Positions 13,733 to 57,643 of a stretch of DNA of 64,000 nt are shown here, one piece after another; positions within the stretch are counted from its first letter, which is position 1, and every line of letters begins with the position of its first letter. The stretch comes from an uncultured Desulfovibrionaceae bacterium (GTDB lineage: Bacteria; Bacillota; Dethiobacteria; DTU022; UBA8154). The notes below the pieces were generated by a model. That model saw nothing but the letters and a program-made list of their open reading frames with translations, made no database searches and was not told the DNA's origin. A program made the position numbers and the translations under genes. The stretch lies in assembly GCA_964581355.1 (NCBI GenBank), contig CAZOOA010000005.1, forward strand, positions 11,487-75,486. Direction: 5' to 3'.

Positions 13733-13794
13733 AAATCCGGTGGGAATCCTCGGGATCTATTGACCACGTGAGGATATCATTCTTAAAGTTCTTT

Positions 13795-13940
13795 GTAACT
13801 GCTCAGCGCTATTTGTAAGCGAAGCTGTGGGGACAGTTTTCGCGCTTCCGGAGCGCAGCGGAGGACCGACAGGGAAAGCGCGAGAACCGTCCCCCTGCTT
13901 TGCGGCGTGTTGTGGAATCATATAAGGGCTGAGCAGTTAC
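13795..13940. mobile_element. MITE-like non-autonomous element, copy 1: 146 bp, 13-bp TIRs GTAACTGCTCAGC/GCTGAGCAGTTAC, perfect 8-bp TSD AGTTCTTT (13787-13794 and 13941-13948)
   Basis: About 85% identical to the second copy at 57498-57643. The TIRs and the flanking direct repeat were read directly from the sequence. Internal long hairpin GGGGACAGTTTTCGCGCTT...AAGCGCGAGAACCGTCCCC. Confidence 0.75.
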
Positions 13941-14545
13941 AGTTCTTTTAGATCTGTGGCAATGGCATTTAAATGCCAGAGTATATCCTCAAACGCATCC
14001 AGCATTTGTAAGAAAACAGAGGAGGCTTGAGCGGGACAGATGCCCTGGCTTAGCCTTTCTTCATGCTCGATGGCGTAACGCCGCGAAATAAGCTCGTACT
14101 TGTTGGTTTCCTTAAATATATAGCGAAACAGAACAGGGTTCATGTTGACCAACAAGTCATTCAGGTAGCTATAGATGGCTTTTACCCCCTGGAACAGCTC
14201 TTCCATTTCCATGGCTGCAGTATGGGTAAAACGAATATCGTTCTTGTTTTTAATCCGGGTGAAGTTAATCAGTTTTTCATGATCAAATTTAAGTTTCTGC
14301 ATGTGAACTAACAGGGAATACAGCAAAGCGTATTCTTCCCGTGTGATATCATCCAGTTCCTTTAATTTTTGGGAAAGGGTATTAACAAGCTGGGCGATTT
14401 CCCGGTTCTTCTCTTCGGCGCTGCTCAATGCTTCTTCATTGCGATTAATATACCCTTCAAATGTGTCGTGCATGATTTCATTGGCGCTGGTTGATATATC
14501 TTTAAGTAGGTTTACAACATCAACATCATGAAATATCTTGGCCAT
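13937..14545 (-). CDS. hypothetical all-alpha protein (202 aa). Its stop codon lies inside the MITE terminal inverted repeat
   Basis: Long ORF, convergent with yraN. I do not recognise any family motif; a tentative PhoU/DUF47-like idea was dropped because there is no DRED motif. The C-terminus ...DLKEL* is encoded across the TSD/TIR boundary. Confidence 0.55.
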   Translation of the reverse strand: MAKIFHDVDVVNLLKDISTSANEIMHDTFEGYINRNEEALSSAEEKNREIAQLVNTLSQKLKELDDITREEYALLYSLLVHMQKLKFDHEKLINFTRIKNKNDIRFTHTAAMEMEELFQGVKAIYSYLNDLLVNMNPVLFRYIFKETNKYELISRRYAIEHEERLSQGICPAQASSVFLQMLDAFEDILWHLNAIATDLKEL

Positions 14546-23658: not shown

Positions 23659-23697
23659 ACGCTTTGCTGTGTGGGGCGTAAAGCGGGCTGAGCAATT
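23659..23697. repeat. degraded fragment of the MITE right end (...CTTTGCtgtgtggggcg...GGGCTGAGCAatt)
   Basis: About 70% similar to the last ~45 bp of the 146-bp element, including the GGGCTGAGCA terminal motif. Confidence 0.35.
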
Positions 23698-23746
23698 ATT
23701 CTGAACCATTGATGACATTAATTATCTTAAAAAGGAGCCTTCCCTC

Positions 23747-29899: not shown

Positions 29900-29921
29900 A
29901 TCAGTTTAAGAACGGTTCGTT

Positions 29922-29943
29922 TTAAGCGAAGCTTTGAGGACGG
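29922..29943. repeat. short fragment resembling the MITE left-inner segment (TTAAGCGAAGCTTTGAGGACGG vs GTAAGCGAAGTTGAGGGGACGG)
   Basis: Ungapped identity is only ~13/22 (the first 10 nt match). About 18/22 requires a 1-nt gap on each side. Read by eye. Confidence 0.25.
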
Positions 29944-33218: not shown

Positions 33219-33420
33219 GGCGTGGGCGGGGACACGAACCTGCACCAGAAGCCATTAGTTTTGTTTGTATCTGCCTTCAATGAACAAACTAGTTTTAACT
33301 TAAGTGATTGCTCTGCCTGGAGCCGTCAAAGGACCGGGACAGCAGGTACATCAGCTAAGGATTTTTATGTGCCTTCCTGTTTTCCTGGAAGGCATAATTT
33401 ATTTTAAGGCCTGGTGAGCG

Positions 33421-57461: not shown

Positions 57462-57497
57462 TCGGTAATATAATTATTAAAAGCCTAATAACTGCTT

Positions 57498-57643
57498 AGC
57501 AATATTTGTAAGCGAAGTTGAGGGGACGGTTCTCATGCTTCCGGAGCGCAGCGGAGGACCGATAGGGGAAGCGCGAGAACCGTCCCCCTGCTTTGCGGCG
57601 TGTTGTGCAATCACACGAGGGCTGAGCAGTTACGAAGCCTAAT
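57498..57643. mobile_element. MITE-like element, copy 2: 146 bp, TIRs ATAACTGCTTAGC/GCTGAGCAGTTAC, 8-bp TSD aAAGCCTA/gAAGCCTA (7/8). Inserted between nusA and ylxR
   Basis: About 85% identical to copy 1 over its full length. Same length, same TIRs, and a different TSD, which is the signature of independent transposition events. Confidence 0.75.

Follow-up and report, generated by a model that had tools for sequence, protein, structure and literature searches.

A 146-bp miniature inverted-repeat element with ISBst12-type ends in an uncultured soda-lake Bacillota lineage

A 64,000-nucleotide stretch of contig CAZOOA010000005.1 (assembly GCA_964581355.1), from an uncultured bacterium placed in the Bacillota, contains two copies of a 146-bp non-coding element with inverted repeats at its ends and 8-bp direct repeats around it. 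This whole stretch is referred to below as the window. The locus raises the question of what this element is, and to which family of transposable elements it belongs. The element was found to occur in at least eight further places, and relatives lack it at both of the window loci. It is very probably a miniature inverted-repeat transposable element (MITE), non-coding and derived from an insertion sequence (IS) of the ISBst12 group, which is the branch of the IS66 family that has a single open reading frame (ORF).

Boundaries, copies and empty sites

Copy 1 is complete and occupies positions 13795-13940 of the forward strand (nhmmer E = 6.6e-51). Its left terminal inverted repeat, GTAACTGCTCAGC (13795-13807, forward strand), is perfectly complementary to the right one (13928-13940, forward strand), which reads GCTGAGCAGTTAC, the exact reverse complement. 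The element is bounded by a target-site duplication, the 8-mer AGTTCTTT being present both at 13787-13794 and at 13941-13948. The initial annotation had placed a 146-bp element with 13-bp inverted repeats and an 8-bp duplication at exactly these coordinates. Inside the repeats lies an inner palindromic module (13821-13901, forward strand), whose apical loop includes CCGGAGCGCAGCGGAGGACC and whose arms carry the cores GGGGACAGTTTTC (13829-13841) and GAGAACCGTCCCC (13882-13894). The sole ORF of at least 50 aa that overlaps copy 1 is a 54-aa ORF on the minus strand, which runs out of the element.

Copy 2 is also 146 bp long and lies on the forward strand at 57488-57633, in the spacer between nusA and ylxR. 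A second copy of this length had been recognized before, at coordinates (57498-57643) that were 10 nt too high. Its left inverted repeat, ATAACTGCTTAGC, has decayed by two changes, G1>A and C10>T, where a single G>A change had been described. The inner cores are at 57522-57534 and 57575-57587. The flanking 8-mers, AAAGCCTA at 57480-57487 and GAAGCCTA at 57634-57641, agree at seven of eight positions. The two copies are 90% identical, a closer match than the earlier estimate of about 85%.

Chance is excluded as the origin of the two full copies, because both score E = 1e-48 to 1e-51 in nhmmer and because together they form by far the longest repeat in the window. When a profile built from eight full copies was run on the window, the only full matches were copies 1 and 2. 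The 14-mer at the end of the element occurs four times in the window with two or fewer mismatches, compared with 0.29 occurrences expected.

The claim of degraded fragments at 23659-23697 and 29922-29943 did not survive, neither being significant by the eight-copy profile. The profile does not report 23659-23699 at all, and it gives 29918-29943 an E value of 0.9. The first of these segments (23659-23699, forward strand) ends in GCTGAGCAATTAT. The 14-mer GGCTGAGCAATTAT at 23686-23699 has two mismatches to the right end of the element, and the GCTGAGCAATTAT variant found there is also the right end of a metagenome copy (L190, below). From this resemblance, weak and not significant as it is, the segment may be a decayed right-end remnant of the element.

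Copy 1 is situated between convergent genes, in the yraN/orf202 region, and copy 2 is inside the rimP-nusA-ylxR-infB operon. The gene orders in the window, rimM-trmD-rplS-lepB-ylqF-rnhB-yraN and rimP-nusA-ylxR-infB-rbfA, are what we take to be the Bacillota arrangement. The ORF at 13937-14545 (minus strand) ends in a TAA codon at 13937-13939 that falls within the right inverted repeat of copy 1. As had been proposed, the element supplies the stop codon of this gene.

Comparison of orthologous loci, which the initial annotation had recommended, found empty sites for both window copies, with the 8-mer present once in each. At the copy 2 locus a relative with 92% identity in YlxR (L202 in ENA, L203 in JGI Ga0207421) lacks the insertion. 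The nusA-ylxR spacer measures 87 bp in this relative and 241 bp in the window, and the difference of 154 bp is exactly 146 + 8. In the alignment the flanks continue without interruption, and a single GAAACCTA stands where the window has AAAGCCTA, the element and GAAGCCTA.

At the copy 1 locus, orthologues of the 202-aa gene with 83%, 81% and 60% identity occur without the element, and in two of these three loci the convergent genes overlap. The empty loci hold the 8-mer once. In one orthologous locus (L193) the gene ends in GGAACTTTAG (Lys-Glu-Leu-stop), which matches the reconstructed pre-insertion sequence, AAAGAACT followed by TTAA. By this match, the insertion of copy 1 replaced CTT TAA with CTG TAA and left the protein unchanged. 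Another relative (L194, 77% identity) has two solo inner core units in the copy 1 spacer, in place of the element.

The copies outside the window all come from a scan of metagenome contigs with the apical-loop 20-mer CCGGAGCGCAGCGGAGGACC. Contigs of soda-lake metagenomes contain at least eight further distinct insertions, and each is flanked by an 8-bp repeat of its own, as would be expected if the element had spread as first suggested. Complete insertions are present at L084 (identical to L125), L113, L118, L172, L175, L178 and, twice, L187; the copy at L190 is truncated on the left. All but one of the extra copies are in contigs with the prefix Ga0207421 (JGI 3300027784). The copies range from 136 to 174 bp in length. 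The inverted repeats, complementary at 13 of 13 positions in copy 1, are conserved with some decay in the others.

Flanks were scored after the element boundaries had been placed at the inverted repeats. For the two window copies and the eight complete metagenome insertions, all ten distinct, the flanking 8-mers agree at 8/8 positions in five, 7/8 in four and 6/8 in one. The mean is 7.4 of 8, compared with 2.7 of 8 (maximum 6) in 90 mismatched pairs of left and right flanks. The perfect duplications are AGTTCTTT, TTTTCTTT, TTTCAATT, ATATATTT and AATTGTTT, and the A+T content of the duplicated targets is 78%. If two partial copies are included, all 12 copies are intergenic, and for seven of the 12 a stop codon is no more than 26 nt away.

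The insertion of copy 1 is shared by three independent assemblies, from ENA (ERZ27265998), NCBI (GCA_003555305.1) and JGI (3300000557). Exact protein matches put the window on the 157-kb contig k141_353507 of the ENA assembly. The contig prefix of the JGI sample, SL_8KL_010_SED, presumably denotes a soda-lake sediment sample; 3300000557 and 3300027784 are both taken to be Kulunda soda-lake metagenomes. Five short-read (Logan) contigs terminate inside copy 1 or copy 2, as expected from the tendency of assemblers to break at multi-copy repeats. No element ends were matched in viral contigs, and about 11 kb of flank beyond the window contains neither further copies nor an IS.

Some of the metagenome loci have features of their own. 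The copies at L084/L125 and L113 form a sub-family with an 8-nt insertion in the right inverted repeat (GCTGAGCAG-CATACCAG-TTAC), and their 8-bp duplications are perfect despite this right-end insertion. The L113 copy also has a longer, unrelated left arm, which brings its total length to 174 bp. A different intergenic element of 233 bp is found at 1932-2164 of L084 (= L125). Its ends, GCTACTGCTCAGC and GCTGAGCAGACAC, resemble those of the MITE, and it shows no clear 8-bp duplication. Possibly it is another derivative of an ISBst12-type element, older than the MITE.

The loop sequence used for the scan is more widespread than the element. Taken alone, CCGGAGCGCAGCGGAGGACC occurs in more than 100 unrelated soil-metagenome contigs among the matches listed, and in three Streptomyces plasmids a near-match to it lies some 300-390 nt from the plasmid ends. 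The string is commoner than chance, so it is also part of some actinobacterial repeat or terminal sequence. When the element itself was compared with plasmids and phages by blastn, the only matches (E = 0.4) were to Streptomyces plasmid ends, and they were dismissed as chance or GC-rich similarity.

Relation of the ends to the ISBst12 group

The ends of the element can be compared with those of full-length IS elements. ISDge4 of Deinococcus geothermalis, characterized in a 2026 study, belongs to the ISBst12 group of the IS66 family and encodes one transposase of 449 aa; its ends are reported as GTGACTACTCAGCA and GTAACTGCTCAGCA, together with an 8-bp direct repeat (PMC12898284). Other ISBst12-group elements were located in plasmid records by tblastn with the pHTA426 transposase, and their ends were read directly. 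ISGka4, on G. kaustophilus pHTA426, has the end GTAACTATTCAGCCC and the duplication AACTCGTC. Two elements of 1613 bp, one on G. thermoleovorans pLDW-1 and the other ISGst1 of G. stearothermophilus, have the same end, GTAACTATTCAGCC, and are flanked by ATTTTCAT and AAAAGAAC respectively. The B. thuringiensis pBMB0231 element (1630 bp) combines the end GTAACTACTCAGCT with the duplication AATTTATC, and that of Planococcus lenghuensis (1549 bp) combines GTAACTACTTAGGT with TTTAATTT. On D. wulumuqiensis pDrdI, an element of 1454 bp has the end GTAACTGCTCAGCA (14/14) and the duplication TAAAAATC. The remaining two are from Ca. Chlorohelix (1504 bp; end GTAACAATTCAGCC, duplication TTCAATTT) and Acaryochloris (1551 bp; end GTTACTGCCCAGGC, duplication CTTCATTC). 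In all eight elements with both ends recovered, the 8-bp duplication is 8/8.

The 13-bp inverted repeat of the MITE, GTAACTGCTCAGC, begins with 5'-GTAA and agrees at 13 of 13 positions with the start of the ends of ISDge4 and the D. wulumuqiensis element. Six other ISBst12-group elements read from records have close variants of this end, all with differences at one to four of the 13 positions. The MITE end fits the group consensus GTAACTRYTCAGC, which is common to members from four phyla. A search for the IS family with these ends had been suggested at the outset, and the family can now be named from the match in end sequence and duplication length, the two features that connect a MITE with its parent family, although the parent was not found. 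Together, the further copies and the empty sites support the initial interpretation of a non-autonomous MITE that is mobilized by a transposase.

An ISBst12-type DDE transposase encoded elsewhere would bind both 13-bp ends (GTAACTGCTCAGC) and insert the element into A+T-rich intergenic DNA through an 8-bp staggered cut. Repair of this cut would leave the 8-bp direct repeats. We infer that this organism has such a transposase and that it acts in trans on the MITE.

Several observations weigh against derivation from this group. First, beyond the 13-15-bp ends, the arms of the MITE (positions 14-26 and 108-133) are unlike those of every sampled ISBst12-group element. The assignment is made to the ISBst12 group and not to a specific parent because of this lack of resemblance, and it is an assignment by terminal sequence and duplication length. 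Second, tblastn found no partner transposase in the additional ~11 kb of flank, nor in the remaining fetched loci. Third, the element has so far appeared in soda-lake assemblies only, among the matches listed, and a scan of 185,579 species-representative genomes gave no full copy among the matches to its 18-mer core, CGAGAACCGTCCCCCTGC. Finally, an end identity of 13-14 bp combined with the duplication length is strong, not unique, proof.

The earlier statement that the window has no transposase gene holds for the ISBst12 type. A tblastn search of the window with the ISGka4 (Geobacillus) transposase, directed at this type alone, detected no gene of the kind. One weak partial match to an ISBst12-type transposase was found, in an unrelated soil contig (L144).

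The missing parent and the unmatched arms would also fit a MITE of another IS family, whose resemblance to ISBst12 ends is convergent. Duplications of 8 bp are made by several IS families, and IS6/IS26, ISL3, IS256 and IS1595 are the ones to consider. The ends of these families would start differently, however, for example with GGTTCTG in IS6 and GGCTCTT in ISL3. Also set against this explanation are the identity of all 13 end positions with two ISBst12-group elements and the fact that GTAACTRYTCAGC is common to members of the group from four phyla, all with 8-bp duplications. An origin from another family is improbable, and an ISBst12-type origin of the ends is preferred.

On a Deinococcus sp. 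QL22 plasmid, a 41-bp unit (L212, 376-416) is made up of two ISBst12-type ends placed back to back, with the sequence GTGACTGCTCAGC-15 nt-GCTGAGCAGTTAG. An IS66-family transposase gene begins a short distance downstream. The unit could represent a MITE reduced to its minimum, or else a junction of two ends.

The inner palindrome and the hairpin

The interior of the MITE is a repeat of another kind than its ends. On the evidence of sequence similarity the MITE is a composite, in which ISBst12-type ends surround a resident palindromic repeat of about 80 bp that belongs to a different family. This is because profile positions ~27-107 match palindromes of Bacillaceae and Clostridia (E = 1e-5 to 1e-7), and because an inner palindrome with the MITE-type apical loop occurs in a soda-lake contig (L172, 10714-10796) without the IS-like arms.

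The family was surveyed with the genome scan for CGAGAACCGTCCCCCTGC, a pattern that was too generic in hindsight. About 45 Bacillota loci have the core in a short palindrome, among the matches listed. The core itself, GGGGACGGTTCTC / GAGAACCGTCCCC, is 12-13 nt long and nearly invariant. Neobacillus examples read GAAGCA-T-GGGGACGGTTCT-TC-TGCTTCATCA on the left and TGATGAAGCA-CG-AGAACCGTCCCC-C-TGCTTC on the right, with a span of about 75-80 bp. From genome to genome the outer stem (GAAGCA, GACCAT, GAGCAG, ATGCAG and others) and the central stem both vary, with paired changes in the two strands of the stem. Units may stand alone, form inverted pairs (~75-80 bp) or make up tandem arrays, sometimes several within 8 kb; at one Niallia locus (L020) three units follow each other at a spacing of 41 nt. 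The Bacillaceae hosts are Neobacillus, Niallia, Mesobacillus, Rossellomorea, Falsibacillus and others, and the Clostridia hosts are metagenome-assembled genomes of Desulfotomaculaceae, Pelotomaculum and Lachnospiraceae. The loci include L016, L043 (Neobacillus sp. D3-1R), L008, L015, L029, L041, L044, L047, L054, L061 and L062. In the window the core is found only within the two MITEs.

No target duplication was detected around the Bacillaceae palindromes at any offset, the best mean identity being 0.35. No Rfam family matches the palindrome at six Bacillaceae loci. The core motif is undescribed in Rfam and in the literature searched, and may be catalogued elsewhere, for example in ISfinder. 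Literature matches to the motif were only primers and unrelated sequences, and were discarded. A reading of the core as a sigma-54 promoter was rejected by inspection, since the GG/GC spacing is off by one. The edges of the palindrome frequently show short tandem duplications of the terminal ~10 nt (GAAGCAGGGG / CCCCTGCTTC).

These properties are similar to those of REP/BIME sequences, which are also short imperfect intergenic palindromes that occur singly, in inverted pairs or in tandem clusters, with no target duplication detected. Unlike REPs, which are usually species-specific, the inner palindrome has a 12-13-nt core that is common to two Bacillota classes, and it has no terminal GTAG/CGTC head. 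Tentatively, the palindrome might be an undescribed pan-Bacillota element recognized by a conserved protein, either a hairpin-specific transposase or a nucleic-acid-binding factor. If this is true, the MITE shows the palindrome hitch-hiking in the shell of a DDE transposon, and a REP-like module would have a second way to spread.

Could the palindrome be the mobile unit in the MITE as well, moved by a Y1/RAYT-type or other hairpin-recognizing enzyme, with the outer repeats incidental? In its favor are the occurrence of the family in many genomes, in all its arrangements, without target duplications, and the arm-less solo palindrome at L172. Movement of the REP/RAYT or IS200/IS605 type, however, makes no duplication and needs no terminal inverted repeats, and the whole element has both. 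Occupied and empty sites differ by the complete 146-bp element plus 8 bp, with limits that fall exactly at the outer ends. All ten insertions share these ends and the 8-bp duplications. It is very unlikely that the palindrome alone was the unit that moved.

Because of the inner palindrome, the whole element folds into one long imperfect hairpin, as the initial annotation had described. The DNA fold has an energy of -37.8 kcal/mol (z = -6.1), and the RNA folds of the two strands have z values of about -6.8 to -7.0. A simple scan of both copies found no consensus terminator, with the qualification that its loop limit of 3-8 nt would miss this hairpin. No compensatory change was seen at any of the 49 predicted pairs when nine copies were compared; the substitutions break pairs, are one-sided or make one-sided G-U pairs. 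Rfam at gathering thresholds, run on the whole window, reported nothing at the element, and its permissive mode on 13750-13990 returned only chance microRNA and U7 matches (E > 0.7).

The earlier suggestion that the element may act as a terminator or structured RNA is not supported by these results. A domesticated regulatory or structured-RNA module (a terminator, an RNase III site or a small RNA), kept by selection at both loci, would agree with the very stable hairpin on either strand, with the sites of copy 1 between convergent genes and of copy 2 in the rimP-nusA-ylxR-infB operon, and with the T-rich target sequence that follows the hairpin at several copies, but it is hardly credible given these terminator, covariation and Rfam results, the close relatives that lack the insertion at both loci and the decay of the left arm of copy 2. 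Most simply, the hairpin is a passenger, part of a neutral mobile DNA with no sign of co-option. It may have an incidental effect on the yraN/orf202 transcripts, through read-through from yraN, and on the nusA-ylxR transcript, through processing of the spacer.

Three side observations concern the palindrome and the Rfam screen. The strings AGCAGGGGGAC and AGCACGAGAA lie just inside the ends of the D. wulumuqiensis pDrdI element (L209, 423-448 and 1851-1876) and the right end of its D. radiodurans CP1 counterpart (L216). In this Deinococcus element, AGCAGGGGGAC is on the left and AGCACGAGAA on the right, read inward, and the two match the strings that open both ends of the Bacillota core unit, GAAGCAGGGGGAC...GTGCTTC. 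Other ISBst12-group members, including that of Deinococcus sp. QL22, do not have them. The match may be coincidental, or it may point to a connection between the two types of repeat. Second, a conserved non-coding stretch of about 330 bp lies directly downstream of the 5S rRNA in Mesobacillus campisalis (L051, 497-868; L060, 7273-7645). It is also present in Bacillus sp. FJAT-27251 (L010, about 1370-1704), where no 5S was found. The stretch has many TTTACTCTACA motifs and one core unit at its end, and no Rfam family matches it. Third, the window contains a pan motif (RF01749) at 33261-33346 of the forward strand, scoring 36.7 bits against a gathering threshold of 36.2; it is unrelated to the MITE.

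Comparison with known elements and significance

The autonomous members of the ISBst12 group (ISBst12, ISGst1, ISGka4 and ISDge4; ~1.45-1.63 kb) have the same ends and the same 8-bp duplication, mostly at A+T-rich targets. The MITE differs from them in being only 146 bp long, in having no transposase gene and in its interior, which is a foreign palindrome between unrelated arms. In its organization it is similar to Correia/NEMIS of Neisseria, RUP of S. pneumoniae, bcr1 of the B. cereus group and Nezha of cyanobacteria. These are likewise small and non-coding, with inverted repeats, target duplications, many intergenic copies and a long hairpin, and they often abut gene ends. The ends, the duplication length and the presumed parent family are different; the duplication is TA for Correia and TTTAT for bcr1. 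Neither IS66 nor ISBst12 is named in a 2024 review of prokaryotic MITEs, a further paper that describes MITEs does not ascribe them to IS66, and no MITE attributed to the ISBst12 branch was found in the literature searched. The element is apparently unnamed and is mobile DNA of an ordinary kind, a MITE assignable to the ISBst12 group of IS66.

The analysis documents a MITE family for an uncultured soda-lake Bacillota lineage by its ends, by the 8-bp duplications at ten insertions and by empty sites for two of them. At the strength given above, the family is linked to the ISBst12 branch of IS66, whose active transposition was first reported in 2026. There are consequences for work on this lineage. 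The repeat breaks its short-read assemblies, and the insertion polymorphisms are usable as strain markers. The palindromic core that is shared across classes is an unexplained lead. For the host, the element has brought a very stable hairpin into the nusA-infB operon and, at the other locus, to the 3' end of the gene that takes its stop codon from the element.

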